A program made the translations under genes and the position numbers. The notes under the pieces were generated by a model. It was not told the origin of the DNA. It saw nothing but the letters and a program-made list of their open reading frames with translations, and did no database searches. 30,859 nucleotides of DNA from a virus (taxonomy: Duplodnaviria; Heunggongvirae; Uroviricota; Caudoviricetes). Location of the stretch: the IMG/VR virus record IMGVR_UViG_2740892488_000014; one strand, written 5' to 3'. This document shows, piece by piece, positions 10,930 through 30,859 of this stretch (positions are counted from its first letter, which is position 1; the number at the start of each line of letters is the position of its first letter).

Positions 10930-10943
10930 ACACATTCAACAGA

Positions 10944-11557: not shown

Positions 11558-12124
11558 ATGGCAAGTCAGGCTGAGGTTGCAGCACATTTACTGCTATCTG
11601 ATCGTCGTCTGCGCGATCTCGCAAAACTTCCGGGAGCACCAGTCCCACAAGGACGTGGTGATTGGGAGCTAGACGCATGGCGCCATTTTTATATTCGTTA
11701 TCTCCGGAGCAATAGACGCGACACAACTAGTAATGACGAACCGGAAGCGGGGGACAATTCTCCCGAAAAAAATCGCGAGCAGTGGCTGAAAAATGAGGAA
11801 CGACAGGAGCGAATCCTGATGGCACGAGTAAAACGCCGCATTCTCGCTAAACGCTACGCGCCAATTGAATTAATTAGCGTCGCTGTATCTCGCGTCGCCG
11901 TTGAATTACGTACCCGCGTCGAGTCGTGGCCACCACGCCTGAAAAAGGTCTGGCCGGAGATGCCGCAAGAGGCGAGCAGTGTATTACGAGAGGAGCTGGC
12001 GATAGCCTTAAATGAGTTGTCAGACATACGAATCGACTTCAGCGATTACGATGTCAGCGATATCGAACGCGATCTCGACAGGGTTGAATCCCTTGCGCGT
12101 GACGATACCGATGACGGGTGTTGA
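11558..12124 (+). CDS. Putative terminase small subunit, 188 aa
   Basis: Position immediately upstream of, and overlapping, the gpA-like large terminase. It has a basic N-terminus and an acidic C-terminus. Functional call is by synteny. Confidence 0.6.
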   Translation: MASQAEVAAHLLLSDRRLRDLAKLPGAPVPQGRGDWELDAWRHFYIRYLRSNRRDTTSNDEPEAGDNSPEKNREQWLKNEERQERILMARVKRRILAKRYAPIELISVAVSRVAVELRTRVESWPPRLKKVWPEMPQEASSVLREELAIALNELSDIRIDFSDYDVSDIERDLDRVESLARDDTDDGC

Positions 12125-13974
12125 GTGGGCTGATAAATATTTTTATCTCCCTGAGGGCTCCAGCCACATCGCTGGGCACTGGACGACTCAGCCGGTCCAG
12201 GTAGTGATGCTCAATATGATGACGAACGACGCGATAAAAATCGTGTCTGTTCGCAAATCAGCTCGTCTCGGTTATACAAAAATACTCGTCGCGGCGCTGC
12301 TCTATTTCGCTGAGCACAAAAAACGTAGTGCCGTGGTCTATCAGCCTATCGATGACGAATCGGATGGATTTGTCGCCGACGAGGTTGACCCCGCTATCGC
12401 CGAAATGCCAGTGATTCAGAAAATTTTCCCCGACTGGGATAAAAGCAACGAGCGTAACAATCTCCAGCGTAAAGAAATGAGCGGCGCGATTCTTGATTTT
12501 CGCGGCGCGAGTGCACCAGGAAATTTCCGGCGACTAACGAAACAGGTTGTCGAGGGTGACGAAGTTGACGGCTGGCCGCTGGAAGTTGCCAAAAAAGGCA
12601 AAGGCGAGGGCTCGCCCATCGAACTGGCGCTCGTTCGAATTAAAGGGGCAGCGTACCCGAAGGCGATTTTTGGTTCGACGCCGACCGTTACCGGCAAAAG
12701 TCATATCGAAATGCTCGAAGACGCTGCCGATCTGACGTTTCGTTTTTACCTGACATGTCCGCATTGTGGCGAGGAGCAGGTCCTGGTATTTGGTTTCGAC
12801 GGTATCGAATACGGCCTCAAATGGGATAACAGCCTGCAGACCAATGAGGCGAAATCGTCGTCCGCGTATTACCAGTGCTGCCACTGCCCGGAACATTTTT
12901 TACTATCGCGATCTCGAAAAAATGGAGTTCGGGGGGCGCTGGATAGCCGAGGACTGCACCTGGACCCGAGACGGCATTCATTTTTTTGATCATGACGGTG
13001 GCGTCGTTCGCGCGCCGAAACACGCTGCGATCGTGATAAACGCCCTGTATTCACTAAACCTCGATGGATGGGGCGAGATTGTCAGCGAGTGGCTGAAAGC
13101 GAAAGGCGACCCGCTCAAGGAAAAGACGTTTCATAACACGACGCTCGGCGAACTCTGGAGCGACGTGGCCAGCGAGCAGCTGGAGCACGATATTCTGGTT
13201 AATCGCCGGGAAAAATACGCCAGCCAGGTTCCTGACGGTGTTGTTTATATAACCGGCGGCATCGACTCTCAGACGTCCGGGCGCTACGAGTGTTATGTGT
13301 GGGGCTGGGGAGCCGAGGAGGAGTGCTGGCTGATTGATAAAACAATCGTCCTCGGTCGCTACGACGAGGAGGACACGCTGCAGCGCGTCGACGGAGTGAT
13401 TCGCAAACAATACCGGCGCAGCGACGGGACCACAATCGGCGTCAGTCGCTGGGCGTGGGATACCGGTGGTATAGATGCGCAGGTCGTTTATAACCGCTCG
13501 CTGAAACTCGGTCCGCTGTGGGTCATTCCAATCAAGGGCGCGAGCTCATACGGCCAGCCGGTCGTAAATATGCCTCGTACCCGTAACGCGAATAAAGTGT
13601 ATTTGTCGTTGATTGGGACAGATACAGCGAAAGACCTGCTCGCAATGCGCCTGCAGCTGGAACCCGACTCCAAATCGGCGACACCAGGTGCGATTCATTT
13701 TCCCAACGACGACGAAATATTCAGCACGACAGAGGCAAAACAGCTCGTCTCCGAGGTTCTGATCCCGAAACTCATTAACGGTCGCGTCGTTTATCGTTGG
13801 GACAACCAGGGCCGGCGAAATGAGGCGCTCGACTGCTGGGTGTACGGACTGGCAGCGCTGCGTATCAGTAAAATTCGTTTCCAGCTCAATCTCGAGACGC
13901 TCGCTGAGCAACGGAAAAAATCACAAAACAAACTGTCTCTCGAGGAGATGGCCAGAATGCTCGGAGGGAGCTAA
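12012..13974 (+). CDS. Terminase large subunit, lambda gpA-like; frameshifted in this sequence at a T6 run (~12896-12901)
   Basis: ORFs 12012..12989 and 12766..13974 are collinear with lambda gpA (...VEWAD.YYLP...KSAR.GY.K...CPHCGEEQ...TRDGI...NTTLGE.W...GIDSQ...YE..VWGWG...IPIKGAS.YG.PV...GTDTAK...RNEALDC.VY.LAALRIS). The junction ...PEHF|YYRDLEKMEF... needs T6 read as T5. The true start may be the internal ATG near 12051. Confidence 0.9.
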
Positions 13975-14207
13975 TGACGTCGCGCGAGGTTTTAACAGAA
14001 CGACTGCTGGAAGCGGAAATCGCTCTGCACAAATTATTAACGGGTAAATCGACCGTGTCGCTGTCTCACGGCGATTCAGCAGGAAATAACCGGAGCTATC
14101 AATACTCGCAGGCGAGTATTGAGCAGCTCCGAACGTACATTATCGAGCTGAAATCACAGCTCGGTCTGAGTACGGGACGCCGTCGGCCCGTGGGAGTTCG
14201 ATTATGA
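13974..14207 (+). CDS. Head-tail joining protein, lambda gpW-like, 77 aa
   Basis: Collinear with lambda W (...ALH.L.TGK....S.GD.......S...L..YI.EL..Q.G....RR.P.G...); ATGA overlaps with neighbours. Confidence 0.8.
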   Translation: MTSREVLTERLLEAEIALHKLLTGKSTVSLSHGDSAGNNRSYQYSQASIEQLRTYIIELKSQLGLSTGRRRPVGVRL

Positions 14208-15778
14208 CTGCTCCGCAGCAGCTGCTCGGGCCTGACGGTAAAACGCCACTACGCCGTTACGCGGGGTATAACGGCGGCGGTCCCGGTTTCGGTGGCCAGC
14301 TGATTGACTGGAACGCACCACAGCAGAGCGCCGACGCAGCACTGTTGCCGAATTTTTATCGCGGTAACGCGCGAGCAGACGATCTCGTTCGCAATAACGG
14401 CGTCGCGTCGAACGCCGTGCAGCTGCACCAGGATCATATCGTCGGCAATCTGTTTAAGTTGAGTTATCGCCCTAACTGGCGTTACCTCGGCATATCTCGC
14501 GAGGACGCCAGGGCGCTGGCGCGTGACGTCGAGGTAGCGTGGACTGAATACGCCGAGGACCCTCACTGCACGATTGATATCGAGCGGAAACGGACGTTCA
14601 CAATGATGATCCGCGAGGGCGTGGCTACTCACGCTTTCAACGGTGAAACCTGCGTACAACCAGTCTGGGAGAGTAGTGCCGGCAGCGTTTTTCGGACGCG
14701 ATTCAAAATGGTCTCACCGAAACGGATTCGAAATCCGGGTTACGCAGCTGACACTCAATTTCGCCGCGCCGGTGTTGATATCGATAAAAACGGGGCCGCG
14801 GTCGGGTACTGGATAGCCGAGGATACTTACCCTCTCGGCGGAGTCGGTAAATGCCGGCGTATCCCAGCACAGCTCAGCAGCGGCAGACACGCATTCATCC
14901 ACATATTCGAGCCGCTCGAGGACGGACAGACCCGCGGGGACAATATTTTTTACAGCGTCATGGAGCGCCTGAAAATGCTCGACACACTGCAGCAAACACA
15001 ACTGCAGAGCGCCATTGTGAAGGCGATGTATGCCGCGACAATCGAATCAGAGCTCGACAGCCAGCAGGCGTTTGAATATATCGCCGGCGCGGGTACTGAT
15101 ATCGACTCGAACCCGCTGAATTCGTTTATTCAGAGTTACGTGACGTACTACAACGGCGCAAATATCAAGCTCGGTGGTGTGAAAGTTCCCCACCTGCATC
15201 CCGGCGACAAACTCAGTTTACAGACCGCTCAGAATGCTGATGCTGGTTTTAGTTCACTGGAAAAATCACTCCTGCGTTACGTTGCAGCTGGCGTTGGCGC
15301 GTCATACGAAGAACTTAGCCGGGACTACAGCCAGGTCAGTTACTCCAGCGCCCGGGCCAGTGCTAACGTCAGCTGGCGATTTTTCATGGGGCGTCGACGT
15401 TTTATCGCCGCGCGACAGGCGTCGCTGATGTTCTGCTGCTGGTTTGAAGAGGCGCTGGCACGCGGAATTATCACCCTGCCACGCTCAGCTGTCCGGTCGT
15501 TTTATGAGGCGCGGAACTCCTGGACGAACGCGCTCTGGATCGGCGCTGGTCGCATGGCGATTGATGGGCTGAAAGAGGTTCAGGAGAGCGCCATGCGCAT
15601 CACAACTGGCCTCAGCACGTATCAGAACGAACTGGCGCTGCAGGGACAGGATTACGAGGAGGTTATGGAGCAGCAGGAATACGAAATTCAGCGCCGGCGT
15701 GAAATGGGGCTGAGCGAACCGTCATGGTCTGTATCTCACCCCTCAAATACCAACGATAACGGCTGGGGAGGTAACTGA
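14204..15778 (+). CDS. Portal protein, lambda gpB-like, 524 aa
   Basis: Strong collinearity with lambda B (YNGGG.GFGGQ...QSADAALLP...GNARADDLVRNNG...YRPNWR.LG...FYSVMERLKMLD.LQ.TQLQSAIVKAMYAATIESELD...GAGRMAIDGLKEVQES.MRI..GLSTY..ELAL.G.DY). Confidence 0.95.
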   Translation: MTAPQQLLGPDGKTPLRRYAGYNGGGPGFGGQLIDWNAPQQSADAALLPNFYRGNARADDLVRNNGVASNAVQLHQDHIVGNLFKLSYRPNWRYLGISREDARALARDVEVAWTEYAEDPHCTIDIERKRTFTMMIREGVATHAFNGETCVQPVWESSAGSVFRTRFKMVSPKRIRNPGYAADTQFRRAGVDIDKNGAAVGYWIAEDTYPLGGVGKCRRIPAQLSSGRHAFIHIFEPLEDGQTRGDNIFYSVMERLKMLDTLQQTQLQSAIVKAMYAATIESELDSQQAFEYIAGAGTDIDSNPLNSFIQSYVTYYNGANIKLGGVKVPHLHPGDKLSLQTAQNADAGFSSLEKSLLRYVAAGVGASYEELSRDYSQVSYSSARASANVSWRFFMGRRRFIAARQASLMFCCWFEEALARGIITLPRSAVRSFYEARNSWTNALWIGAGRMAIDGLKEVQESAMRITTGLSTYQNELALQGQDYEEVMEQQEYEIQRRREMGLSEPSWSVSHPSNTNDNGWGGN

Positions 15779-17086
15779 TGCCGTGGAACAATTTTCCGCA
15801 CCTCGCCGCCAGGGCGTTCAATCAACCGCTTTTGCTGGAGCCCACCTACGCGCGGGTATTTTTTTTCGGCGCTGAGCGACCGGTTCGGTACCGGGCGACT
15901 GATTGATACAGCGTCTGGAGAGGTAATGAACAGCGACGAAATGAACGCGCTCGCGATGGGGTGGGACAGCAGCGAGCGAACACGCCAGAAATCGTATCGC
16001 GTGGAGCGTGGTATAGCCGTTCTGCCGGTTACCGGGACGCTGGTTCATAAATTGGGTTATATCAACCCAGTTAGCGGGATGAGCGGTTACAACGGAATCG
16101 CAAAACGCCTGCAGCAGGCGATTTCTGATCCCGATGTAAGAGGGGTCCTGCTTGATATTGACTCCCCTGGCGGTGAAGTCGCCGGCGCGTTTGATACTGC
16201 TGATTTAATCGCCCGGGCGCGAGAGCAAAAACCTGTGTGGGCGCTGGCCAGCGATACGGCCTGCAGCGCTGCCTATTTGCTGGCGTCAGCGTGTTCGCGC
16301 CGGCTGATAACGCAGACAGGCACAGTTGGTTCAATCGGTGTCCTGATGGCTCACCGCTGCGTCGAAAAAGCGCTGGAGATTGCTGGCGTCGACGTGACGC
16401 TGATTTACGCCGGCGCGCACAAAGTTGACGGGAACCCGTATTCCCAGCTGCCAGGCGACGTTCGCGACGAATTCCAGCTGAGTATTAACAGCACGCGCGA
16501 GCAGTTCGCGCAAAAAGTCTCGGATTATACCGGGCTGAAAAAATCCAGGGTGCTGGCCACGGAAGCTGCAGTATTTATCGGCGCGGACGCGATTAAATCT
16601 GGTCTCGCTGATCAACTCGTTAATTACGCGGACGCTATCGCAGTGATGGCCGACGCACTGAAACCAAAAATGGAGCGCTTTATGTCTGGTACAGAAACCA
16701 CGGCGGAGACCACGACCACAGAACAAACCGCGACCACGACTACTGTCGCGCAGGTTGAGTTTAACACGGAGCAGATTCGCGCGGACGCCGCATCAAGCGA
16801 ACTGGCGCGTGTGATGGCCATCATCAATTGTCCCGAAGCTGTTGGGCGCGAGGCGCAGGCAAAAGCGCTCGCTGGCGTCCCCGGGATGACGGTCGGGCAG
16901 GCGCAGGTAGTCCTCGCTGCAGCACCTAAAACGGCGCAGGCGCGGACAGAAACGGCGCTCGATACACTAATGAGCACTGAATCACCAGCGACTATTCAGG
17001 ATGCTGGCAGTACTACGGCAACAGGAACAACCGCAAACGTCTCGATGCTGGTTGCTGCAGGGCGTTCAATTTTAGGGGATGAATAA
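15778..17086 (+). CDS. Head maturation protease/scaffold, lambda gpC-like (S49/ClpP-like; Nu3-like scaffold nested in the C-terminus); frameshifted at a T8 run (~15859-15866)
   Basis: The ATG at 15778 overlaps the portal stop. The first 27 codons match lambda C (..PH.A..AFN.PL.LEP.YARVFF), then the frame is lost. ORF 15926..17086 continues the gpC homology (...LPV.GTLV...GYNGI..RLQQA.SDP.V.G.LLD.D.PGG...SIGV.MAH...GNPYS.LP.DVR...). T8 read as T7 gives ...ARVFFSALSDRFG... Confidence 0.9.
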
Positions 17087-17415
17087 TGACTACAGAAACG
17101 TATAGCCCGGACGATTTTATTCTTGGGCCTGACCTTGTTGTCACGACCGTCGGTCATTTTCAGGGCGGGATCAACGTACCCCGGCTGACACCGATTATGC
17201 TCGACGCTACTGTCGGGACGTTTAAGGTTTGGGACGGCTCAGTCGGTAAAGCTATTGGCCTCACTGCCACCGCAGTTAATACTGGCTCCAGTTCTGCAGA
17301 CTGCTCGTACTATAAATCAGGCTCGTTCCGTTACACGGCGATTAACTGGGGTACGGTTACCGACGTAGCTAAACGCAAATCAGCATTTGCGGGTACGCCG
17401 ATCAGCGTCGGCTGA
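17086..17415 (+). CDS. Head decoration protein, lambda gpD-like, 109 aa
   Basis: Collinear with lambda D (...P.MLD.....L..WDG.......L.A....S....FYKSG.FRY....W......KR.AFAGT.IS..). Confidence 0.85.
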   Translation: MTTETYSPDDFILGPDLVVTTVGHFQGGINVPRLTPIMLDATVGTFKVWDGSVGKAIGLTATAVNTGSSSADCSYYKSGSFRYTAINWGTVTDVAKRKSAFAGTPISVG

Positions 17416-17434
17416 TAGCAAAAAACTCAAAACA

Positions 17435-17457
17435 AGCCGCCTCCGGGCGGTTTTTTT
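17435..17457 (+). terminator. Intrinsic terminator-like hairpin (GCCGCC-tccg-GGCGG followed by T7) between the decoration and capsid genes
   Basis: GC stem followed by TTTTTTT. It probably works as a partial terminator or RNA 3' stabiliser, since capsid genes lie downstream. Confidence 0.55.
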
Positions 17458-17473
17458 ATAACAGGATATATAA

Positions 17474-18509
17474 ATGAGCGATTCGTTTACTACGTCAGAA
17501 CTGATTACCGCGACACAGCAGGTATTTAAGTTCAATCCGTTGTTTTTAAAGCTGTTTTTCCGTGAGACCTACACGTTTACGAGCGAAGAGGTTTTTCTGG
17601 ATAAAATCCCGGGAAAAGTGAACATGGCCGTGTACTGCGCGCCGATGATCACCGGCAAAGTTGACCGCACTCGCGGCTATTCAACGAACCATTTCAAACC
17701 GGGTTACACGAAACCCAAGCACACGATCAATCCGAATATGAGCATCAAGCGCGCAGCCGGTGAGCAGATTGGCCAGCCGGAAACGCCGGTCGAACGTCGT
17801 GCAAAAATCATCATGCAGAACCTGCTTGATGAGGAACTGAGCATCAGCCAGCTCGAAGAGTTCCAGGCGGTACAGGCTGTTCTGTACGGTAAATACACTG
17901 TTTCCGGCAGCAATATCGAGACCTATGAGATCGACATGAGCCGCAGCGCGACGAATAACGTCACTCAGTCCGGTTCGACAGCCTGGTCGACTCAGGACGC
18001 GGAAACGTATGACCCGAGCGACGATATTGAATCCTACGCGGACCTCGCCTCCGGTGCGGTTAACGTGATCATCATGGATGGTAAAGCCTGGAAGCAGTTG
18101 AAGCGTTTTAAAAAATTCTGGACGGCACTGGATACGCGCCGTGGCTCAAACAGCCAGCTCGAGGTCGCGCTGAAAAACCTGGGCGACGTTGTCAGCTTTA
18201 AAGGCTACTACGGCGACACTGCGCTGTTTGTCTACAAAGGGCAATACCTCGACCCGGTAACAGACACTGAAACGCGTTATATGCCGGATAACACGATGAT
18301 CCTTGGCAACACAAAAAAACCGCGGGCTCCGCACTTATGGCGCAATTCAGGACGAAGACGCGCTGAAAGAGGGTATTTCCGAAGCGACGCGCTATCCAAA
18401 AGTCTGGACCACTACCGGTGATCCGGCAGTGACGCAAACAATGACGCAATCCGCGCCAGCAATGGTCCTCACGGACGCCGACGCGTTCGTTGTCGTAAAA
18501 ATCGCGTAA
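17474..18509 (+). CDS. Major capsid protein, lambda gpE-like; frameshifted at an A7 run (~18313-18319)
   Basis: ORF 17474..18421 matches lambda E from the N-terminus (...FKF.PLFL.LFFRE.Y.F...V.L..IPG.VNMA.Y..P...PGY.KPKH..NP.M...). ORF 18303..18509 continues it (...RGLRTYG.IQD.DA..EGI....RYPK.W.TTGDPA...). A7 read as A6 joins them. Confidence 0.9.
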
Positions 18510-18543
18510 GAGTCGAAAGGCTCTTTTTTGTTAAGGAATCAAC

Positions 18544-18963
18544 ATGAGCACAAAAACAGAATTGCTGGCGCGTATTGACGATCTGAGCGCTCAGCTCGGT
18601 CGCGAATTACCGCGCAGCGGGACTATTGCGGAACTGGAATCAATCGTTGCCGGCGCTGAGTCAGAGCTCGATATTCTGAACGAGCAATCCGGTGACGCGG
18701 GAGGCATCGAGATTACAGTGAATACTGCGTCCGGGACCGATAATGAACTCGCTCAATCAATCGCGAGCGCTATCGTTTCACAGTCACAAGAGCAGGAGCT
18801 CGCACCGGCTACGCGCCGCGTCAAGTTGCGTAACACGCTGGACGTTTATCACTACGTGAACGGGCGTCGCGTTCGCGAGATTGTTGCCGCAGGCCGTGAA
18901 ATTGTTGTTGATTCACCGGAGGTCGCAGACCTTATCGCAGCTGATCACGTTTACGCTCTATGA
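18544..18963 (+). CDS. DNA-packaging/head-assembly protein, lambda gpFI-like, 139 aa
   Basis: Position and loose N-terminal similarity to lambda FI (M..K.EL.AR...L..QL.R.....GT..EL...VA....ELD). Confidence 0.65.
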   Translation: MSTKTELLARIDDLSAQLGRELPRSGTIAELESIVAGAESELDILNEQSGDAGGIEITVNTASGTDNELAQSIASAIVSQSQEQELAPATRRVKLRNTLDVYHYVNGRRVREIVAAGREIVVDSPEVADLIAADHVYAL

Positions 18964-19472
18964 GCTACTACGATGACCTCCGGGCCGGCGACGAGGAGAT
19001 GATCCGTGAGTGGGGACGGCCCGTTAAATTACGCGGTAAAACCGACCCCATTATCGCTATTTTCAACGAGCCTTACGCGCGCGTTGACGTTCCTCACGCT
19101 GGTTTTATTACCGGTACAGTAACGAGCCTGACGGCGCTCTCGGACGACGTCGCTGGCGTTGTTGCGCGTGACGTCGTCCAGGTTCCAAAGCAGCGCAGCA
19201 TCGAACCTGACGGCTCTGTTACCTGGTCTGGCTGGACCGATTACGTGGTTAAAGAGCCTCAACCTGATGGCACAGGGCTCACGAATATTTTTTTTAGAGC
19301 CTCACACGTCCAGCGAAAACAGCGAGTATTCAAAATACTAAGTGGGACCTCGGTCCCACTTAAGGGGGAACCGTGGCCGATTTACGTAGTAACGCGCAGA
19401 TGTTCGATATCGATGTTTCGGCGCTGGAGCAGCTCAGAGTCGAAATCAGCGCGACGCAACATCAAATGTTAA
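18960..19472 (+). CDS. Head-tail connector, lambda gpFII-like; probably frameshifted at a T8 run (~19288-19295). With T7 the gene ends at 19341 (127 aa)
   Basis: Collinear with lambda FII (...VIRGVFDDPEN.../...IIAIFNEPYAR...). The corrected C-terminus ...GTGLTNIFLEPHTSS... parallels lambda ...GGSCHLWLGRGV...; the uncorrected ORF runs 131 nt into the next gene. Confidence 0.65.
   Translation: MSYYDDLRAGDEEMIREWGRPVKLRGKTDPIIAIFNEPYARVDVPHAGFITGTVTSLTALSDDVAGVVARDVVQVPKQRSIEPDGSVTWSGWTDYVVKEPQPDGTGLTNIFFRASHVQRKQRVFKILSGTSVPLKGEPWPIYVVTRRCSISMFRRWSSSESKSARRNIKC
19341..19361 (+). other. Perfect 9-bp stem hairpin AGTGGGACC-tcg-GGTCCCACT between the FII-like gene and the first tail gene, directly upstream of an SD AAGGGGG
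   Basis: Read from the sequence. No U-tract follows it. Confidence 0.4.
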
Positions 19473-20053
19473 TGGTATACAACAGGGCGCTGAACCGAAC
19501 TGCAAAACATATGCACCGAATTTCAGCAGGAATGATTTTGACTGCACTGGCAGCTAAAAATCATAAGGCCGTAGATAAACGAATCAAGCCGTTCATTAAG
19601 CGCCGTAATTTTACAAAAGAAGGGGCAGGAGACCTGAGCAGCGCCAAGCTCTGGTACGGTCTGAATGATTTCCGGGTATCTGAGCTAAAGGGGCGATTAC
19701 AAAATCCACGGAGGCAAAAACAGCCTCGCGATCTTGAGACCGGCCTGTTTTTGAAAACCAAAAAAGGCGCTAGAGGGGCAACTTTTACACCCAAAAGTGC
19801 AGGGCTGGCGATGATGAGTTGGCCCGATTCATTCGTAGCGAAACGCTACGGTGCGAAAAGTGTCTGGATTCGACTGGATCGCGGAGGAATCGAAGAGGCT
19901 CGCGTACCTGTGCACGACGCGCTGGAGGATGCTATCGATGATTATATTTTTGAAAACATTGGCCCTGTTTTTATGGGCTTTTTTGAGAAAGATTTGCGCG
20001 GTCGCGTGAAAGGTAATGTCCACGTAGACCCAAAAACAGGTAAACGATTATGA
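19373..20053 (+). CDS. Hypothetical virion protein (226 aa) at the head-tail junction; possible tail completion/adaptor
   Basis: GTG start with strong SD; sits between FII-like and tail-terminator-like genes; no family recognised. Confidence 0.5.
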   Translation: MADLRSNAQMFDIDVSALEQLRVEISATQHQMLMVYNRALNRTAKHMHRISAGMILTALAAKNHKAVDKRIKPFIKRRNFTKEGAGDLSSAKLWYGLNDFRVSELKGRLQNPRRQKQPRDLETGLFLKTKKGARGATFTPKSAGLAMMSWPDSFVAKRYGAKSVWIRLDRGGIEEARVPVHDALEDAIDDYIFENIGPVFMGFFEKDLRGRVKGNVHVDPKTGKRL

Positions 20054-20586
20054 GCGGACTGGATGCATTTGACGAATATCTTGATCGCGTTAAAGGCGCG
20101 GTTTTACAAATACCGTTCATCAAAACATTCGGAATTTATCCGGAAATTCCGGCTGGATTTGAAACGCCAGCTCTGTTCCTGGAAATCAGCAACTGGTCAC
20201 AGAGTGACGAATCGGTTCCAGGCTCAATTCAGTCAGTCGAGCTGTCGTGTAATTTGTATTTGCTGCGTGAATTTGCAGCTGATCAGTACGGACTGAAATC
20301 GCAGAATGCAGCGCTCTATATGACGAGCTGGATCAATGGGCGAATGTTCGGTCCCGGAACTAAACCGGCAAAATTCAGCGACGCGGAACCGTGCGACTGG
20401 ATTAAAAACGGGCAGTCAGTCGGTTCGCATTCAGTTCAGTGCGTGTCGTTCACGCAGGTTGTAGGCGTTGGTCCAGATATTTTCGATTATCCCTCACAGG
20501 GGACCCTGAAAAATATATACGTCGGAATAGCACCAGATATCGGCGCAGAACATGAGGGCGACTATTATGGCCCAATCGGACGATGA
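20050..20586 (+). CDS. Putative tail terminator/completion protein (lambda gpU / P2 gpR-like), 178 aa
   Basis: The segment ...PALFLEISNWSQSDESVPGSIQSVELSCNLYLL... parallels lambda U ...PAVAVYLTGAEYTGEELDSDTWQAELHIEVFL...; position is just before the baseplate genes. Weak. Confidence 0.4.
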   Translation: MSGLDAFDEYLDRVKGAVLQIPFIKTFGIYPEIPAGFETPALFLEISNWSQSDESVPGSIQSVELSCNLYLLREFAADQYGLKSQNAALYMTSWINGRMFGPGTKPAKFSDAEPCDWIKNGQSVGSHSVQCVSFTQVVGVGPDIFDYPSQGTLKNIYVGIAPDIGAEHEGDYYGPIGR

Positions 20587-21469: not shown

Positions 21470-21471
21470 AG

Positions 21472-21813
21472 ATGCTTGGAATGGACCGTAACACCGGTAA
21501 ACTTTTATCGGGGACTGATCACATTCGTCAGTCTATCGTTGATATTTTAACGACCCCGCTGGGGACGCGTGTAATGCTGCCGGAATATGGCAGCAAATTA
21601 TTTGATCTTGTTGATAATCCCACAGATCCGTCGCTTGCTATGCGAATAATCATGGAAAGCGCTGGCGCAATAGCACGATGGGAACCACGCGTCAGAATTG
21701 ACAGAATAAATGTGTTAGCAGTGGATATCGGGAAAATAACAATATTAATTATCGCAACAGATATCGAAACACAACAGCGATTAGAGTTTAATAATATGGA
21801 GCTGATATTTTGA
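21472..21813 (+). CDS. Baseplate wedge protein, P2 gpW / T4 gp25-like (GPW_gp25 family), 113 aa
   Basis: MLGMDRNTGKLLSG.DHIRQSIVDILTTPLGTRVM.PEYGS.LFDL.D.P matches the P2 W signature. The track ORF starts upstream at 21424, overlapping V. Confidence 0.85.
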   Translation: MLGMDRNTGKLLSGTDHIRQSIVDILTTPLGTRVMLPEYGSKLFDLVDNPTDPSLAMRIIMESAGAIARWEPRVRIDRINVLAVDIGKITILIIATDIETQQRLEFNNMELIF

Positions 21814-22730
21814 TAACATCAACAGTTCAGAATTCGATAGTGAAAACTATTGATATGAGTCTGCTGCCGCCGCCAGCATTCGTTAAAACCCCGTTATTTT
21901 CAGATGTTAAATCTAATCTACTGTCAGAGCTGCAGATATTATATCCACAATTTAACGCACTCCTGGAGTCAGACCCGGCCGTTAAACTGCTGGAAATAGT
22001 TGCATACAGAGAAATCATTATTACAGCTCGGGTAAATCAGGGGATGCTCGCTGTATTGCTCGCGTTTGCAAAGGGGAGTGACCTCGACCAGATTGGCGCT
22101 AATTTTGACTGCCTGCGGCTGTTGATAACGCCAGCTAATCCCGATGTAATTCCCCCGACTGAGGCTGTTTACGAGAGTGACGACGAGTATCGACACCGAA
22201 TACAGCTATCATGGTATGCGCGGAATACTGCCGGCAGTACGAACGCCTATAACTATTTCGCGCTGTCGAGTGATCCCGACGTTCTGTCAGCTCAGGCGTA
22301 CGGCCCGCCGGTGACCCAGCCTGGATACGTCGATATGTATGTCTTGTCGCGAACCGGCGACGGCACTCCGCCTCAATCACTACTGAATACAGTGAATGCG
22401 GCCCTGTCTCCTGACGATACTCGACCGCTGACTGATTTCGTGACTGTAAAACCTGCGTCGAACCTGAATTACCGGGTTGAGGCCGTTATCGTAGCCGGGC
22501 TCGGACCCGACCAGAACGTTTTGCTTAACGGTGCTCAGAGCGATTTGGCGATATATGTGGATACGCAACATAAAATCGGAGCGACGGCAGCTCTGTCAGG
22601 AATTTACGACGCGATACATCGTGACGGCACTGAACGTGTGATTCTGATATCGCCAACAGAGGATGTGATCGCTGGCGTCGGGCAGGCTCCGTACTGCACA
22701 GAAATCAAACTCAGCGTGCAAATGGGGTAG
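21810..22730 (+). CDS. Baseplate assembly protein, P2 gpJ-like, 306 aa
   Basis: Collinear with P2 J (...EP.VKLLE..AYRE...R.RVN......LA.A.G.DLD.IGAN....RL.ITPA......PT.AV.ESD..YR.RIQ...). Confidence 0.9.
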   Translation: MITSTVQNSIVKTIDMSLLPPPAFVKTPLFSDVKSNLLSELQILYPQFNALLESDPAVKLLEIVAYREIIITARVNQGMLAVLLAFAKGSDLDQIGANFDCLRLLITPANPDVIPPTEAVYESDDEYRHRIQLSWYARNTAGSTNAYNYFALSSDPDVLSAQAYGPPVTQPGYVDMYVLSRTGDGTPPQSLLNTVNAALSPDDTRPLTDFVTVKPASNLNYRVEAVIVAGLGPDQNVLLNGAQSDLAIYVDTQHKIGATAALSGIYDAIHRDGTERVILISPTEDVIAGVGQAPYCTEIKLSVQMG

Positions 22731-22732
22731 CC

Positions 22733-23359
22733 ATGACAAGTCAAAGCGTACTGCCTCCGAACGCAATAACCCCTGAGAGGGCGCTTGAGGTTGTTTTATC
22801 TCACGTCGGCGATCTGCCTGGCGATATTCGAATTATTAAAAATCCCGATTTGTGCCCTGCAAATCTGTTGCCGTGGCTGGCGTGGGAGTACGCGGTCACC
22901 TACTGGAACCCCGACTGGAGTGAGCAGCAAAAACGCGAAATTATTAAAGCAGCTGCGTGGCAGAATAAGCACCGCGGAACGCGTGGAGCTGTTGAACGAG
23001 CGTTATTAACTGTTGGCTTTGAGAGCAAAATGAGAGAGTGGTTTGAAGCCACGCCCAGGGACGACCCGTATACATTCGCAATTAAAATATATCTGCTAAA
23101 AAGCATGGGGTTAGATTTAGAACTATTGAATACATTTATTGCACAAATATTTGATGCAAAAAATTGTCGTTCCTTATTAAAAGAAATAAATTTCGAAACG
23201 GGTGTCGATGGTGAGTTTTTTATAGCCGGTACACCTTACGCGAAAATAGGCGTAAACGTCCCAGCAGACGGCGACGGCGGTGTAAAAATTAACGGCGGGC
23301 TATATATATCGGGCTCACCAATTGTTAGTTTAAATGTGGAGATAGGGCCAAATGGCTGA
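22733..23359 (+). CDS. Baseplate/tail-formation protein, P2 gpI-like, 208 aa
   Basis: ...NPD.CPANLLPWLAW...W...W.E..KR..I......H..GT.GA..R... matches P2 I. Confidence 0.85.
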   Translation: MTSQSVLPPNAITPERALEVVLSHVGDLPGDIRIIKNPDLCPANLLPWLAWEYAVTYWNPDWSEQQKREIIKAAAWQNKHRGTRGAVERALLTVGFESKMREWFEATPRDDPYTFAIKIYLLKSMGLDLELLNTFIAQIFDAKNCRSLLKEINFETGVDGEFFIAGTPYAKIGVNVPADGDGGVKINGGLYISGSPIVSLNVEIGPNG

Positions 23360-24536: not shown

Positions 24537-24925
24537 TGATAAGCGTTGATTCATTTAGAAAAATAACAAACCCTGTTTTTAATGACGAGCATGGGTTATC
24601 TATAAATATTATTTGCGATATTGACGGGATTGGAAACGACATTCCATTCACCGCAATGAAAAATGATTGCGAGGAACACGGTAGGGTTTTATATGAAAGA
24701 GCGCTGAGCGGGGATTATGGGAGCATTTCTAAATTTGTAAAAAAAGAGCAGACGCAAAAACTCCAGACTACATTACGGACTGTTGGCGATCTGTCAATTG
24801 AGGCATTCTCAATTCAGTGTGCAGTAGATGCCGGAACCGCATCTGACGCGCAAATCGAAAATTTGGCCGAGCTTAAAGAAGCAATAGCGACGCGAATTGG
24901 TGAAAATAGAGAAGGAATAAAATGA
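24536..24925 (+). CDS. Putative tail-fibre assembly/chaperone protein, 129 aa, AT-rich
   Basis: Position directly downstream of the fibre gene, with ATGA overlaps at both ends. It shares the low GC of the fibre C-terminus. No strong family signature. Confidence 0.45.
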   Translation: MISVDSFRKITNPVFNDEHGLSINIICDIDGIGNDIPFTAMKNDCEEHGRVLYERALSGDYGSISKFVKKEQTQKLQTTLRTVGDLSIEAFSIQCAVDAGTASDAQIENLAELKEAIATRIGENREGIK

Positions 24926-26425
24926 GCGTAACTAATTTTTTACACGGTATTCGCACGCTCGAATACGACGACGGCACAAAAGAGATCAACACAGTAGATA
25001 TTTCCGTGATTGGGATTGTTGGTACTGCTCCCGATTCCAGCTACCCAACTTGTGCATCACTATTATGGGGATCAGAGCTCGCAGACAATCTTGTTGAGTT
25101 TTCGACTGTCATGCCAGGGGCCGACGGAAACAACTGGATTGTTGAAATTGTTGATTTGGGAATTAACGGGAATGTAGCAACTCCAGGATACAGCACACTG
25201 CCCGACGGTTCGAGAAAATTAACAATGATCACGGACGGTGCCATGACCCCGTCAAAAATGTACGATCAGAACCAGCAGTATAAAGAAGGACTCCAGATTG
25301 GAGAATATATTAACGTCACATTCGGTGGTGATCACGCAGGAACGGGGACTGTATTCGCGCTCCCCCCAACAAATTTATCCGGTGGTAAAGACGAATCGTT
25401 CAAATATAATGTTCCGACGTTAATTGCAGGCAGTCAAAAAAAAAGCTGGATTGCTCGGTGGGTCTGGAACCCTTCCTCCCGCTGTATCTGAAATACTAAA
25501 TCAGGAGGATGCCATTATTGTTGTTGTCCGCGTCGAAGAGGACAGCGACGAAACAAAAATGCGGCAGAACGTCGTTAACGGGATTAACGCATTGTTGACG
25601 TCTGCGCAAATAAATCAAGTAACGCCGAGAATTTTAATCGCTCCAGATTATAGTGCTAACGATTATATTGCAGAACAACTTGAAGTGGTGACAAATAAAT
25701 TACGAGGCGTTGGATATATCGATTCACCGCGAGGCGCTACGCCTGCTGACGTTGTAAATCGTCGTCAGAGGTACGGCGGCAGAATGGAAATTCTGCGCCC
25801 TCGTGTTTATTCTACGAGTGATGTTAGTGGTTTATCTCGTCCGTATTCAGCTATCGCTGCTGGTTTACGAGCCAGAATTGATAACGAAAAAGGGTTTTGG
25901 TGGAGCAAATCGAATCAAAATATCTACGGAATTACAGGACTCGAACAAGTCGATGATTTTATAATCGGTGAAACGAACTGCACAGCAAATCTGCTGAACG
26001 CCAGCCAGGTCAGCACAATTATTCGCTATGATGGATTCAGACACTGGGGTAACTATCTGTGTAGCCTCAGTCCCCAATGGTCCTTTGAATGCGTTCGTCG
26101 GACAGCTGACGTAATTGAGGATTCAATAGCCCGGGCAATGATGACCGATTTTATTGATCGCCCGATAGACCTGCACCTCGGAACAGACGTTGTAGAGTCG
26201 ATAAACGCGTATCTGCATAAATTAGAGGAGCAGGGCGCGATTAACGGAGGACGGGCGTGGTTAGATGAAGAGTTAAATACAAAAGAAAGTCTGGCCGCTG
26301 GTAATCTTTATATTAATGTTGACTTTGGACCGAAATCCCCGGCACAAACAATTACGTTAATGTACCGCATTAATAATGATTACACAGTTGAAGCTCTGGC
26401 CTCTCTTTTTAAAGAAACAGTCTAA
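24922..26425 (+). CDS. Contractile tail sheath protein, P2 gpFI-like, with an extra ~130-aa insertion domain; frameshifted at an A9 run (~25436-25444)
   Basis: ORF 24922..25491 matches the sheath N-terminus (HG....LE...GT..I.TV...IG.VGTA.D). ORF 25424..26425 is collinear with the rest of P2 FI (...RILG.P......LRA.ID.E.G...S.SN....G.TG......LL...GV.T.IR.DGFR.WGN...). A9 read as A8 joins them. Confidence 0.9.
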
Positions 26426-26442
26426 TAATCTGGAGAATTGAT

Positions 26443-26955
26443 ATGGCAGATAGTAACACCTATCGTGCATTTGCGTTGTTCGTCCAGGGAGAACGAGTTT
26501 TAAATTGCACTGAATACACTCCCGTCGATATGAAAATAATCGAAGATGATTTTAAGACGGGCGCTATGGATACAGCTATCACTCTGGACGGGGGAATGGA
26601 GAAAATGTCAGCCAGTTTTAAAGTCTCTGGCTCCGATTCTGGTGTGATGGGGTATTTGGGATTAATACCAGGTGCTAAAACAAGGTTCGAAATTCGAAGT
26701 GCATATACTGACAATTACGGTGTCAATTTTGAACGTATTGATACATATGAGGGGCTTATTACGGCGATTACTGATGACGCGCAGGGGACTGATTCAAAAT
26801 CAGCAGTTGGGCAATCAGTAACGATTGCGCCGAGCTATTATAAACGAGTTCAAAATGGAAAAATTATTTACGAGATTCATCCTGCAAAAATGAAACGAGT
26901 AATTAATGGTGTTGACGTTCTTGCGGGCGTTGCTCGTATTCTCCATGTATATTAA
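26443..26955 (+). CDS. Tail tube protein, P2 gpFII-like, 170 aa
   Basis: Position after the sheath; C-terminal ...EI....KM..VNGVD.L... pattern is shared with P2 FII. Confidence 0.8.
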   Translation: MADSNTYRAFALFVQGERVLNCTEYTPVDMKIIEDDFKTGAMDTAITLDGGMEKMSASFKVSGSDSGVMGYLGLIPGAKTRFEIRSAYTDNYGVNFERIDTYEGLITAITDDAQGTDSKSAVGQSVTIAPSYYKRVQNGKIIYEIHPAKMKRVINGVDVLAGVARILHVY

Positions 26956-26967
26956 AAGGCAAATAAA

Positions 26968-27249
26968 ATGGAATCATTATTAGACAGTATGACTATTACG
27001 CTCTCTCGCCCGTTTATTATTAAGGGGGAGAGCCGCGATACAATTACTATTCGCGAACCAAAATTACGCGACCGCATTATGTTCAGTAACGATAAAAGTG
27101 GTCTTGAAGAGCGGACAGCGACAATGCTGGCGCGCCTGGCAAATCTGGAGCGTGAGGATTTATATGCACTGCCTGCGTGCGATTACGATCAAATGGAGGC
27201 CGCATTTAACGAACTGGTAAAGCCTCCGAAAGACCGACATCAGATATAG
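26968..27249 (+). CDS. Tail assembly chaperone, P2 gpE-like, 93 aa
   Basis: Position between the tube and tape-measure genes; the ...TLSRPF...TITIREP..RD... pattern fits the Phage_tail_E family. Confidence 0.8.
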   Translation: MESLLDSMTITLSRPFIIKGESRDTITIREPKLRDRIMFSNDKSGLEERTATMLARLANLEREDLYALPACDYDQMEAAFNELVKPPKDRHQI

Positions 27250-27380
27250 TTATTCTGATTCCGTTTATTGCGAAAAAACTTGCCATCCCGCCCGATACGC
27301 AAATGGACCTGCCGTACCGGGTTTTTAATTTCTATGTAAACGAGGTCATGAAAATCGATGGCTATTTCTCAAAACTTTAA
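26968..27380 (+). CDS. Predicted gpE+E' fusion made by programmed -1 ribosomal frameshifting near the 3' end of E (analogue of lambda G/GT); E' extension ~27222..27380
   Basis: The -1 frame is open from 27210 to a TAA at 27378-27380, overlapping the tape-measure start. A correctly phased heptamer G_GTA_AAG lies at ~27216-27222 (lambda uses G_GGA_AAG). The extension reads ...IVILIPFIAKKLAIPPDTQMDLPYRVFNFYVNEV... Confidence 0.5.
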
Positions 27381-28997
27381 AACGCAGGTTGTATTCGGTG
27401 GGCGAATAGACCCGTCGTTTCGTCGCGGTACAACAGAACTCAATGATGCGATTCGGCAGACGTCGTCTACTGTCGGGAAATTAACGAAAAGTCAGGATAA
27501 ATTAAAAGACAAAATCGCAGCAATGAAACTGGCAGGTAAAGACGTTTCTGATTTATCTGCTCAGTATCAAAAGCTGGACCGTCGAATAAAAGCGACAACG
27601 CAGGACCAGGAGGCGCTGAATACTCAACTTGCTAAAAAACAGCGGCTGGAGAAGTGGACGGGTCGCGCAAAAGGAGCTGCAAAATGGGGCGGACGAGCCG
27701 CCGCAGGTGCGGTGAGGGCTACGGGGCGGGGTATCAAATGGGGGACACTTGGCGCGGCAGGGCTCATTGGCGGTGCTGCAGCTGGTGCGCTGGCAATGAA
27801 TGCAGAGACGTCAGAAAAACTCGGTCTGGCGAAGTCCTACGGCGTTGGCGTCGAAAAATACGCTGCGTGGGAAAATATTGGTAAAGCCGCGGGCCTGAAC
27901 GGCGAAAATATCGGGGATTTGTCTGAAGAACTTACAAATAAAATCGGCGAAATCGGAAACGAAAAAAGCCTGAATCCCATGTTATTTCAAATTGGCCTGA
28001 CGAAAAAACGAATGGCTGGCTGGGATCGGGAAAAACAGTTTAATGAGGTTATGCGTCGCATCTCTGAAATGAAAGATGAGAAGCAAGCGGCGAGCCTCGC
28101 TGACCAGCTCATGGGGGGCGAGGCTAATAAGATCATGACGTATATGAAGGCGACGGGTAAAAGCTGGGAACAGACAATGTCTGACGCGCAAAAGTCGAAT
28201 TTGTTAACAAAAGAGGGTGCGGAAGGGGCGGCGCGTGCGCATGTATCAGTGACAAATCTGTGGGGCTCTATTACGTCGGGACTTGCAGATACACTCGGTA
28301 AAATCGGGGGGGAACTCGCGCCGACGTTTGACTCAGTACGTGAAACATTTACATCCTGGTTTAAGGATAATCAGGGTGGTTTTGTCAGCACAATTACTGA
28401 GTGGGTAAAACCAGAAAATATGAAAAAATGTGGGATGGCATCGTCAATTTTGGAGAAGGTTGCGTCAAATTCGGGAAGATTATATGGGCTGTCGTAAAGA
28501 AACTGGAGTGGCTTATTCCGGATGAAAAATCAGATGAAGAACAGAAAACTTATAATGACGAATATAATCGGGCATATCAAGAGTTTATGGATTCGGGAGG
28601 TAAATATTCACCGAACGCTGGATTGACTGCTGATAATATTGCGAAGGCAAAAGCCGAAGAGGCTGTCGAAAATATGCGGCATCCAGAACGGCAAGAACAG
28701 GCAAAATCTCAGGCAGAATCAATGCTCGCGTTTGTTAATCCATTATCCGGGATGGTAAATAAAAATACCGCGCCTGCAGCACTGGATTCGTCGACGTTAA
28801 ATATTGATACGTTGAAGCAGGCAGTCTCGACACCTGCGCCGGAGCAAAACAATAAAATCGAAATCAATATTGTCGGTGCGACAGATCCGCAGTCAATACA
28901 ACAATCTGCAGCGTCGGGGGTGCTCGATGGACTGAGACAGGCTGCGAGTTCGTACAATCGTGGCGCGATGTTTGATAAACCAGCTGCGGCGGGGTGA
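27358..28997 (+). CDS. Tail tape-measure protein (~546 aa, short for a P2-like tail); frameshifted at an A6 run (~28423-28428)
   Basis: It has an N-terminal coiled-coil region and Gly/Ala-rich hydrophobic segments, and sits between E/E' and U. ORFs 27358..28497 and 28401..28997 join as ...ENMKK|MWDGIVNFG... if A6 is read as A7. Confidence 0.85.
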
Positions 28998-29422
28998 CAA
29001 TGAGTGATGCAATAAACGGTGCTGAGGATATCATGCTCGGCCTGGGTGATTTCATTTTTGCTATATCAACAGTAGCGTACAACAAACTGCAACGTAGTGA
29101 CGCCTGGCGCTGGGCTCAGCAAACACGATTCGGGAAAAACGACGCGTTGCAGATAACCGGACGACCGAACCCCACAATTACTATCGATGGAAAGATAAAC
29201 GCTTTATTTCTTGACGGGTGCGGCGTCGGCCTGTTGACAGATTTGCGAGCGCTCGGGAACACGGGAGAACCCCAGCAGCTAGTGCTGGGGACCGGGGAGG
29301 TGAAAGGGTACTGGGTGCTGCGAGAACTAACTGAAACGCAAAACAGCTTTTTGATGGGCGGAACACCTAAATCGCAGGACTTTTCACTCACGCTCGAATA
29401 TTATGGAGCTTCGCTAGATTAA
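28994..29422 (+). CDS. Tail protein, P2 gpU-like, 142 aa
   Basis: Collinear with P2 U (...LG.F.F........YQ.LQR...WR.......G......G...D.I...G......GG......L...A..G....L..G.G...G.FVI..I.ET.S.F...G.P....F.L.L). Confidence 0.85.
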   Translation: MTMSDAINGAEDIMLGLGDFIFAISTVAYNKLQRSDAWRWAQQTRFGKNDALQITGRPNPTITIDGKINALFLDGCGVGLLTDLRALGNTGEPQQLVLGTGEVKGYWVLRELTETQNSFLMGGTPKSQDFSLTLEYYGASLD

Positions 29423-29597
29423 TACAAAATCAAGCGCTACCAGAGCACTTAACAAGTATAAAAATAATAAAAAAAAACTACGAACATAAATGTAAAACAA
29501 CCTGATGGTATTTTTTTTTGACGCCGAAATACTAATACCTCTCCGACTACTAAAATTAATTCTCATTATGAAATCCTTTTAATTAATGGGGCCCCAA

Positions 29598-29811
29598 ATG
29601 ATTACATACACTACACGGGACGGTGACCGTCTCGATCAGATCTGCCTTGCGGTCTACGGGAGAGCGTCAAAAACGACAGAGACTGTTTTATATCAGGTTT
29701 CGAATTACGGCGTAACGGATATGTGTGCCGTGTTTCGTGCTGGAGAAAAAAATTGTTTTACCAGATATCGAACCAGAGCCGGTTAAAAAAGAAACGCAAT
29801 TATGGGATTGA
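29598..29811 (+). CDS. Tail protein X-like (LysM-like), ~71 aa; frameshifted at an A7 run (~29746-29752)
   Basis: MITYTTRDGDRLDQICLAVYGR....ETVL matches P2 X (M.TF.LQGDTLDAICVRYYGRTEGVVETVL). A7 read as A6 continues ...AGEKIVLPDIEPEPVKKETQLWD*, like the P2 X C-terminus ...GTAVELPDVQTAPVAETVNLWE. Confidence 0.75.
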
Positions 29812-29814
29812 TGA

Positions 29815-30859
29815 ATGAGTGATTACGTAAATACTGGCGTGGAGGCGTGGAAACCTAATTTTTATATATCTGCTGATAATAAAAACATCACGGATAAAAT
29901 AAGAAAAGGTTTGATCAATATCACGCTGACAGATTACGGCGGCTCCAGTAAACAGACAGACGAACTCCGCGTAGCAATAGTTTCTGAAACTCTGAAAATT
30001 CCGGCCCGCGGAGTAAAAATCAGTATTGGGCTCGGTTTCGGTAATCAGATAATTGATAAAGGGATATACATCGTTGACGGTGCTAGCAGTGGCGGTGAAC
30101 CCCGGGTAGTTGATTTCACAGCAAAAGCGGCTCCGATGAACGCAGCAAAAGGATCTCCGACAGTTCAGAGCAAAAAGACTCGTTCCTGGAGCGACGTCAC
30201 TGTCAGCGATATCGTTGCGACAATAGCGAGCGATAATGGGCTAAAACCACGCGTATCAAAGCGGTTTGCAGACAATGTTATCACGCAACTCGATCAGGTC
30301 GGCGAGTCAGATATGCACCTGATGTCGCGGCTCGCAACGAGATTCGATGCGGTGAGTAAACCCGCGGGCGGGTACTGGATATTCCTGCCGCGCGGCGCGG
30401 GCGAATCTGTTAGCGGTGCTCCGCTCCAGCACTACACGCTAACTCGTCGTGATAACTCCAGCTGGGGCTATTCGAGAAATGGACAAAGTGGCGATAGTGG
30501 TAGCGGTGGCGAAAATCCGGAACCGACGTATCTGATTAAATATCACGACACAGCAACTGGGCAGATCAAAGAATTGCGGACAAGGTAGTGGCGGCGATCC
30601 TGTCATTGAATGGCCGGCAGTTGAGCCGTCGCTCGACGCAGCGAAAGAAGCTGCACCAGGGCTCAAGGGCGGTGCAGCTAAAAAAGAGTTCTCTATGACG
30701 TACACGACGCCAGCGACGCTCGATTTAGTGTCGCTGACAGCAGAATGCAAAGTCACAACTCAAGGTTTCGGGACCGAGGAGGACCGGGACTGGACTATCA
30801 ACACACTGAGTCTGACGCTCGCTGAAAACGGTTTTTCGGTTCGGCTGTCTCTGGAGTAA
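29815..30859 (+). CDS. Tail protein D-like (P2 gpD / Mu gpN DNA-circulation family), ~348 aa; frameshifted near 30555-30586, not in a long homopolymer
   Basis: ORF 29815..30588 matches P2 D through most of its length. The +1 frame from 30536 to the TAA at 30857-30859 gives the conserved D C-terminus (...GFGTEEDRDWTINTLSLTLAENGFSVRLSLE). Confidence 0.85.

Follow-up and report, generated by a model that had tools for sequence, protein, structure and literature searches.

Lambda-type head and neck genes and a P2/R2-pyocin-type contractile tail in the virion block of a yecA-adjacent Escherichia coli prophage

The contractile tail of phage P2 is encoded in the order V-W-J-I-H-chaperone, followed by FI-FII-E-E'-T-U-D. 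In P2 as well as in phiCTX, gene X lies beside the head-completion gene L. The gene cluster of the R2 pyocin spans PA0615-PA0628 (PMC1250226). According to its locus-tag numbering, it runs collar-V-W-J-I-H-chaperone-sheath-tube-E-T-U-X-D and it is devoid of head, portal, terminase and neck proteins. Jilinvirus ECO1230-10 and Hapunavirus VP882 combine a lambda-type terminase-W-portal block with Hc1-Neck1-collar and a P2-type tail. Hafnia phage yong2 and Citrobacter phage Chris1 possess the same parts, but their genes from sheath to D precede W-J-I-H. Here we analyse a stretch of 30,859 nucleotides (nt) from a tailed virus, IMG/VR record IMGVR_UViG_2740892488_000014 (hereafter the window), and in particular positions 11558-30859, which encode the virion. 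An earlier note made from the sequence alone had described this region as a mosaic of a lambda-like head and a P2/Mu-like tail. Its gene list and gene order are confirmed in this study, whereas its assumption of intact reading frames is not; the lambda-like head and the P2-like tail are supported, the label "Mu-like" and the role given to a hairpin are not.

We conclude that the region is very probably the late operon, coding for the virion, of a temperate lambdoid myovirus that resides as a prophage next to yecA in Escherichia coli and is already deposited as vB_EcoM-705R4. Its architecture is that of a known class, and the element is a widespread, ordinary and previously deposited prophage. 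The value as a discovery is therefore small, since the layout of lambda-type head and neck plus P2-type tail already defines classified phage groups. Three results are nevertheless of use to those who work with such elements. The assignment of two neck genes locates the real lambda-to-pyocin homology switch; the window sequence is not usable at face value, seven virion genes being broken by probable homopolymer miscalls; and in most carrier strains the prophage has a frameshifted hub gene, so that particle induction and electron microscopy need a strain with the intact allele.

Identity of the element and its virion genes

Window positions 7585-30859 align with Escherichia phage vB_EcoM-705R4 (ON470624.1, locus L001) over 23,276 bases with 0 substitutions. 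Substitutions are likewise absent from 11558-30859, and gene order and the frameshift in gpD are identical in both. In its deposited annotation, the record is a myovirus whose head genes bear lambda names. As it extends into yecA, it represents a prophage region and not a packaged genome; in strain AR_451, too, the end of the element adjoins yecA. At least 80% of 11558-30859 was found in 442 of 5,426 complete E. coli genomes, in all of them on the chromosome. All virion genes lie on the plus strand and are contiguous from 11558 to the window end. A Q antiterminator and lysis genes are found upstream, and a co-oriented block reaches from these through gpD. It weighs against the identification that the literature searched gave no particle, transcript or protein data for this element. 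Nothing was found in the literature on a "lambda-like head" combined with a "P2-like tail", or on sequence type 131 (ST131) together with prophage and yecA, and the sole paper found that names ON470624.1 is a survey of spacers from clustered regularly interspaced short palindromic repeats (CRISPR).

Concerning the head half (Table 1), the genes from the large terminase subunit (TerL) through FII had been described as collinear with the lambda head genes, and Pfam families and gene order agree with this description. W, portal, C, D, E, FI and FII belong to seven Pfam families, all scored above the curated cut-offs, and the genes corresponding to lambda A, W, B, C, D, E, FI and FII stand in the order of lambda A-FII. 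Amino acid (aa) identity to lambda is 43% for TerL, 35% for W, 64% for the portal, 56% for C, 40% for D, 56% for E and 32% for FI. Apart from four identical records, the closest capsids in the phage collection are those of lambda-like phages and N15 (about 56-58% aa identity). No head-half protein has a match in P2, phiCTX or Mu. Two proteins depart from lambda. The small terminase subunit is not recognisably Nu1 (no Pfam match; pairwise match to Nu1 marginal, E = 0.009), and FII lies closer to the Hc1 proteins of myoviruses: of the proteins compared pairwise, the one that matches it best is the Hc1 of ECO1230-10 and not lambda FII.

The tail half was read as a myovirus tail running V-W-J-I-H-chaperone-sheath-tube-E/E'-tape measure-U-X-D. 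Pfam, PHROGs and PDB agree on this. Amino acid identity to the P2 proteins V, W, J, I, H, sheath, U, X and D is 30-41%; tube and E match by profile only. Among solved structures, chains of the R2 pyocin are the best matches for the collar (PA0615), W (PA0617), J (PA0618), I (PA0619), sheath (PA0622), U (PA0626) and D (6u5h_C), and tube and X also match its chains PA0623 and PA0627. For gpV the best match in PDB is P2 gpV (3qr8), and the phage baseplate protein 4s37 is matched as well. In contrast to lambda, no gpU or gpV of a siphovirus tail follows the gpZ-like gene. The tail-half proteins are without a tblastn match in lambda 1-20000.

Several tail genes deserve comment. GpV has 300 aa as compared to 211 aa in P2, with a repetitive C-terminal extension that ends in an H-T-H-I-C motif; judged by eye only, this motif resembles the metal-binding tips of P2-type spikes. 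The C-terminal part of the fibre gpH is replaced in relatives, and the nucleotide alignment with the W284 prophage, a close relative introduced below, stops after its N-terminal domain. The putative fibre assembly protein shares 44% aa identity over 55 residues with the tail fibre assembly gene of yong2. The E' extension has 57 open codons in the -1 frame and ends 20 nt into the tape-measure gene, a P2-like geometry, and G GUA AAG at 27214-27220, conserved in W284, is a candidate slip site. Against a programmed E/E' frameshift it counts that neither a canonical slippery heptamer (XXXYYYZ) nor a T6G site is present there and that Pfam does not recognise E'. The tape measure is likewise open to objection, as it is assigned by position and size only. 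It belongs to PHROG 3654 (function unknown) and has a single Pfam match, below the cut-off. Identity to the equivalent genes of yong2 and Chris1 is 34% aa, the match to the ECO1230-10 tape measure is weak, and P2 T gives none. Its length of about 546 aa, short as compared to about 815 in P2, holds once the frame is corrected, although it is not an intact open reading frame (ORF) in the window, and the same is true of the 500-aa sheath. The tape measure is the shortest among eight comparators (591 to 904 aa), and a short tail may reasonably be predicted.

The element further differs from P2 by the absence of a P2-type head (Q, P, O, N, M, L), by a Q antiterminator upstream with no ogr gene seen, by the absence of the T6G slip site and by a domain of about 120 aa added to the sheath. 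The completion proteins R and S of P2 are replaced by Neck1 and the PA0615-like collar, which precede V, and Pfam gave neither a GpR nor a tail_S match. It differs from the R2 pyocin in that it has head, portal, terminase and neck proteins.

Table 1. Features of the virion block, with window coordinates, supporting matches and single-base indels
Feature	Coordinates	Strand	Evidence and remarks	Indel
Terminase small subunit, 188 aa	11558..12124	+	PHROG 57 'terminase small subunit', E = 3e-39	
Terminase large subunit, lambda gpA type	12111..13974	+	Pfam GpA_ATPase 2.5e-46, GpA_nuclease 5.2e-64	split by +T at 12896
gpW, head-tail joining protein	13974..14207	+	Pfam gpW 6e-16	
Portal, lambda B family	14204..15778	+	Pfam Phage_portal_2 7.7e-91	
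Prohead protease and scaffold, lambda C-like	15778..17086	+	Pfam Peptidase_S49 2.1e-37	broken by +T at 15859
Head decoration protein, lambda D-like	17086..17415	+	Pfam HDPD 3.8e-07, over its cut-off	
GC-rich stem-loop then T-run, D-E gap, terminator-like	17434..17453	+	consensus scan: 8 pairs, TTTTATAACA tail	
Major capsid protein, lambda E-like	17474..18509	+	Pfam Phage_cap_E 1.5e-59	split by +A at 18313
Stem-loop then T-run directly after E, terminator-like	18508..18525	+	consensus scan	
DNA-packaging protein FI	18544..18963	+	Pfam Packaging_FI 1.1e-08; PHROG 92, 4e-31	
FII, head-tail joining (head closure Hc1)	18960..19341	+	Pfam Phage_attach 2.8e-11; PHROG 82 'head closure Hc1' 1e-25	frame extended by +T at 19288
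Perfect stem-loop directly 3' of FII stop codon, 10 nt before orf226 start	19339..19362	+	11-nt arms 19339-19349 and 19352-19362, 100% complementary	
orf226: Neck1 / tail-completion protein, distantly lambda gpZ-like	19373..20053	+		
orf178: tail terminator, homologue of R2-pyocin collar PA0615	20050..20586	+	profile of 5 homologues vs PDB 6u5f_A, E = 2.8e-16, full length	
Baseplate spike gpV, 300 aa	20567..21469	+	Pfam Phage_base_V 3.2e-12; start ambiguous (20552 or 20567)	
Baseplate wedge / sheath initiator gpW, gp25-like	21481..21813	+	Pfam GPW_gp25 1.5e-16; PDB PA0617 8e-20	
Baseplate gpJ	21810..22730	+	Pfam Baseplate_J 2.4e-20; PDB PA0618 1.7e-58; 41% aa to P2 J	
Baseplate gpI	22733..23359	+	Pfam Tail_P2_I 3.2e-37; PDB PA0619	
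Tail fibre gpH, 394 aa	23352..24536	+	Pfam Phage_tail_fib (N-terminal domain) 4.9e-30	
Probable tail-fibre assembly protein, 129 aa	24536..24925	+	PHROG 1795, 1141 'tail fiber protein'; otherwise position	
Tail sheath, 500 aa	24922..26425	+	both sheath domains in Pfam	split by +A at 25436
Tail tube	26443..26955	+	Pfam Phage_tube 1.5e-21; PDB PA0623	
Chaperone E (26968-27249) and E' extension open in -1 frame (27207-27378)	26968..27378	+	Pfam Phage_TAC_7 1.7e-15	
Tape measure, 546 aa once corrected	27358..28997	+	position between E/E' and U	split by missing A at 28423
gpU	29000..29422	+	Pfam Phage_P2_GpU 2.9e-31; PDB PA0626 'ripcord'	
AT-rich U-X spacer	29423..29597	.	small (50-aa) minus-strand ORF	
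gpX, LysM-like 'glue' protein	29598..29811	+	Pfam Phage_tail_X 1.9e-15; PDB P2 X 2ltf, PA0627	broken by +A at 29746
Baseplate hub gpD, pseudogene in this lineage	29815..30859	+	PHROG 52, 2e-74; PDB pyocin R2 hub 6u5h_C 2.8e-21; Pfam weak	+A at 30582

Neck genes, gene order and mosaicism

The switch from head to tail had been placed at about 19.4 kb, with two unassigned adaptor genes at the junction. Both genes can now be assigned, orf226 as a gpZ-like Neck1 protein and orf178 as a PA0615-like collar, and homologues of both are present in yong2, Chris1 and ECO1230-10. As a single sequence orf178 reaches PA0615 with E = 0.019, as compared to the profile value in Table 1. Because orf226 is gpZ-like, lambda-type homology is one gene longer than had been thought. 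The myovirus tail was thus correctly recognised, but its border was not: by homology, the switch from lambda-type to pyocin/P2-type genes is to be placed between orf226 and orf178, near 20050. Two points weigh against the reading of orf226. Its link to gpZ is transitive only, direct comparison of the orf226 family with lambda gpZ by hhalign having given nothing, and neither phmmer nor a profile search matched it to a PDB sequence.

The relatives of the element inform on the age of this combination. The prophage of strain W284 (locus L011; about 93% identity) has the same gene order but resides at another chromosomal site, near yodB. Its identity is uniform at 93-96% from the small terminase subunit through J, the head-tail boundary included, and breaks in FI, fibre tip and chaperone, sheath insertion, mid tape measure and U-X spacer. 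We further surveyed 80 IMG/VR loci with an orf226 relative. Baseplate and sheath genes were found in nearly every locus with enough downstream DNA, and lambda V and U in none of the 80. Two kinds of head were seen. About 30 of the 80 loci have a lambda-type head in which C, D and E are individual genes, with E identity ranging between 32% and 100%; the second kind has a fused protease-capsid gene of the yong2/Chris1 or the ECO1230-10/VP882 type. In locus L036, baseplate and tail proteins 72-92% identical to those of the window (V 91%, I 92%, J 89%, X 87%, U 85%) stand behind an unrelated head of the fused type (TerL 26%, portal 23%), and nucleotide homology begins at about window position 19261, inside the 3' end of FII. 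In evolutionary terms, the module is thus a mosaic. Chimeric assembly does not account for it, as both halves are contiguous in the 442 complete genomes. Relatives have exchanged head modules, the one breakpoint mapped being that in the 3' end of FII, but the hybrid itself is neither recent nor unusual; the combination is old and stable in its lineage.

One might also regard the two halves as unrelated neighbours, a lambda-like head remnant beside an R-type tailocin rather than one virion module. The tail block is indeed collinear with the headless R2 pyocin cluster, collar included, and the G+C content differs between the halves (head 51-58%, tail 42-53%). However, neighbouring genes overlap or directly adjoin one another on a single strand and leave no regulatory gap, a complete head and packaging block lies directly upstream, and FII, Neck1 and collar make up a complete neck. 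Moreover, the same head-neck-tail order is found in isolated, plaque-forming myoviruses and in the 80 viral contigs, and both halves diverged in step in the W284 relative. We therefore consider two unrelated neighbours highly improbable. For a single virion module, the following assembly can be proposed. A Q-dependent late promoter would read the whole block of about 22 kb. The lambda-type terminase (cos packaging) would fill D-decorated E capsids, which would then be closed by W and FII. The pyocin/P2-type tail would assemble separately on a D/U/X/V hub around the tape measure and would be capped by collar and Neck1. Head and tail would finally be joined through FII.

With regard to gene order, X had been placed between U and D, a position described as Mu-like rather than P2-like. 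The position (29598-29811) and its difference from P2 hold, but the order is that of R2 pyocin PA0626-0628 and is also found in ECO1230-10, VP882, yong2 and Chris1. That X adjoins the hub gene, and not a head-completion gene as in P2, is what speaks for an SfV-like or Mu-like hybrid with a Mu-type tail. Yet tblastn against Mu yielded nothing credible for the module proteins, the only match being a 39-residue fragment of V (E = 0.008), and SfV, to which the earlier note had pointed for comparison, gave none at E <= 0.01. Furthermore, the order is baseplate-first as in P2 and the R2 pyocin, whereas that of Mu is sheath-first. In Pfam, Mu gp43 has DNA_circ_N only and lacks a tail-X domain, and DNA_circ_N was not found in the proteins of the window. 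A Mu-type tail is hence refuted at the level of sequence, and we give this origin practically no credence. The gene order instead places the element with the R2 pyocin and with ECO1230-10 and VP882. Differences to this group remain. Protein identity to the Jilinvirus/Hapunavirus/yong2/Chris1 group is only 22-54%, and ECO1230-10, VP882, yong2 and Chris1 have a single fused protease-capsid gene in place of the three genes C, D and E of the element. The element has the long sheath in common with yong2 and Chris1 (46% aa identity), two phages with lambdoid cI/cII/Q regulation.

Some cargo of the relatives was observed on the way. In W284 (L011 19526-19786), a minus-strand superinfection-immunity gene (Pfam Imm_superinfect) occupies the U-X slot, and the U-X spacer therefore looks like a site for cargo genes (morons) within the tail operon. 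W284 also has a shorter fibre gene and, after gpD, an extra gene with a prophage tail-fibre N-terminal domain (L011 21050-22057); the yecA prophage has a lipoprotein gene at the place of the latter.

Reading frames and the gpD frameshift

The earlier note took the genes as intact and missed seven frameshifts as well as the mutation in gpD. Seven virion genes have no intact ORF in the window, each owing to a single-base indel in an A/T run, as judged by comparison with ON470624.1 and with RefSeq genome L010 (Table 1); the U-X spacer also has homopolymer indels, at 29469 and 29511. All 11 differences from ON470624.1 in the 23,276-base alignment are single-base indels in A/T runs, 10 of the 11 being +1. 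Their frequency climbs with run length: altered were 3 of 3 runs of eight, 3 of 8 runs of seven, 4 of 37 runs of six and 1 of 82 runs of five, and no G/C run. An independent second reference, AR_0089, differs from the window at these sites too. Both references aligned base by base, ON470624.1 and L010, have the shorter runs at all indel sites, and RefSeq annotates the genes as intact in L010 and L002. Because the frequency climbs with run length and no substitutions accompany the indels, the seven virion-gene indels are most likely homopolymer miscalls, that is, artefacts of sequencing or assembly and not decay. Protein work was accordingly done on the intact frames of ON470624.1, mapped back onto window coordinates.

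The alternative is a decaying prophage whose TerL, C, E, FII, sheath, tape measure and X were inactivated by slipped-strand mutation. The indels are truly present in the window sequence, and the prophage already has one genuine inactivating mutation in gpD and an upstream insertion sequence (IS). Also weighing against miscalls is a 189-aa truncated sheath, identical to that of the window (protein P0040 = window 24922-25491), which is found in a public protein collection in a cluster of 107 members. The change in the A run at 25436 is therefore also seen in other assemblies and might in theory reflect true slippage. Against decay stand the 11 indels without a single substitution, their restriction to A/T runs with a steep dependence on run length, their nearly uniform +1 direction and the intact genes of the references. 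We judge decay to be improbable and keep to the reading as miscalls. Upstream of the virion genes, the holin (about 9929-10200) is frame-shifted twice, at 10024 and 10087, and further one-base differences in A/T homopolymers occur at window positions 3836 and 4848.

The situation differs for gpD. Here an extra A at 30582 (GGACAAGG as compared to GGACAGG) stops the protein at 257 aa, and the remainder is read in the +1 frame as far as the end of the window. Comparison with yong2 D located this change of frame. The same insertion is present in ON470624.1 and in L002, and the intact protein of AR_0089 has 347 aa; SK1144 and SA186 are further strains with intact gpD. The frameshift is thus genuine and not a miscall. 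A 60-nt probe of the intact allele matches exactly in 69 genomes and at 95-99% in 364, a band that we take, from the rows inspected, as the +A allele. The hub protein is essential in P2. Since gpD is truncated, the commoner form of the prophage, mostly of ST131 type, probably cannot build tails. As a further observation, a CRISPR array of E. coli LR-46 (NZ_AP027537.1) contains 34 nt with a 100% match to window 29908-29941 (gpD nt 94-127), which suggests a spacer acquired against this phage family.

Sheath insertion and stem-loops

An insertion of about 130 aa near the N-terminus of the sheath had been proposed. The insertion is confirmed, its size is not. P2 FI aligns to sheath residues 3-43 and 158-495 and pyocin PA0622 from residue 154, so that about 115-125 residues (~44-157 relative to these two proteins) are inserted. 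The inserted, hypervariable domain comprises residues ~38-166 (nt 25033-25419) and is confidently predicted to fold as a compact, separate alpha/beta domain. Among prophages it is 27-43% identical, as compared to 66-89% for the sheath core and 93-99% for the other virion genes. W284 and L018 have 43% identity in the insertion versus 89% in the rest of the sheath, and L025 has 32% versus 85%. Such long sheaths are frequent in Enterobacteriaceae (1,099 homologues at E <= 1e-20).

Between the FII stop (19341) and the ribosome-binding site preceding orf226 lies the second element of interest, a perfect hairpin. Only one other perfect inverted repeat of this kind occurs in the window. Close relatives keep the stem and show one compensatory change, A-U to C-G, and one G-U pair. 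L031 and L036 have other GC-rich hairpins at the same spot, that of L036 being followed by a T8 tail; more distant relatives are mostly without a stem-loop there, save for short, weak candidates. This hairpin had been described as a perfect 9-bp structure marking the head-tail junction. The hairpin exists, with 11-nt arms, but it does not mark the junction. A recombination joint was rejected on the grounds that W284 identity runs unbroken and uniform across it and that the L036 breakpoint lies about 80 nt upstream inside FII. A canonical plus-strand intrinsic terminator was also rejected for this copy, which has no T-run and is flagged by the terminator scan on the minus strand only. Better terminator candidates are the two coding-strand stem-loops at 17434-17453 and 18508-18525, which bracket E.

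Stem-loops after D, E and FII probably tune relative mRNA levels. A bolder proposal combines two claims: that the sheath insertion is a module exposed at the surface and subject to diversifying selection or to frequent exchange of cassettes, and that the FII stem-loop is an RNA element setting the head-to-tail ratio in Q-driven late operons. Against the RNA element it must be said that the covariation is statistically weak, as 51 of 500 shuffles reach the observed value, and that the hairpin has no U-tract on the plus strand. Taken jointly, we regard the two claims as rather doubtful. The diversification of the insertion might be driven by the binding of glycans on the cell surface or by evasion of a host defence that senses the sheath.

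Upstream of the virion module and outside it, the window contains about 1.9 kb (5699-7585) that are extra to the phage record. They comprise an ISL3-family transposase (ISEc53) and a DUF1706 / ClbS-DfsB passenger gene, both on the minus strand. Window positions 1-9000, which include this insertion, are covered to at least 80% in 14 complete genomes.

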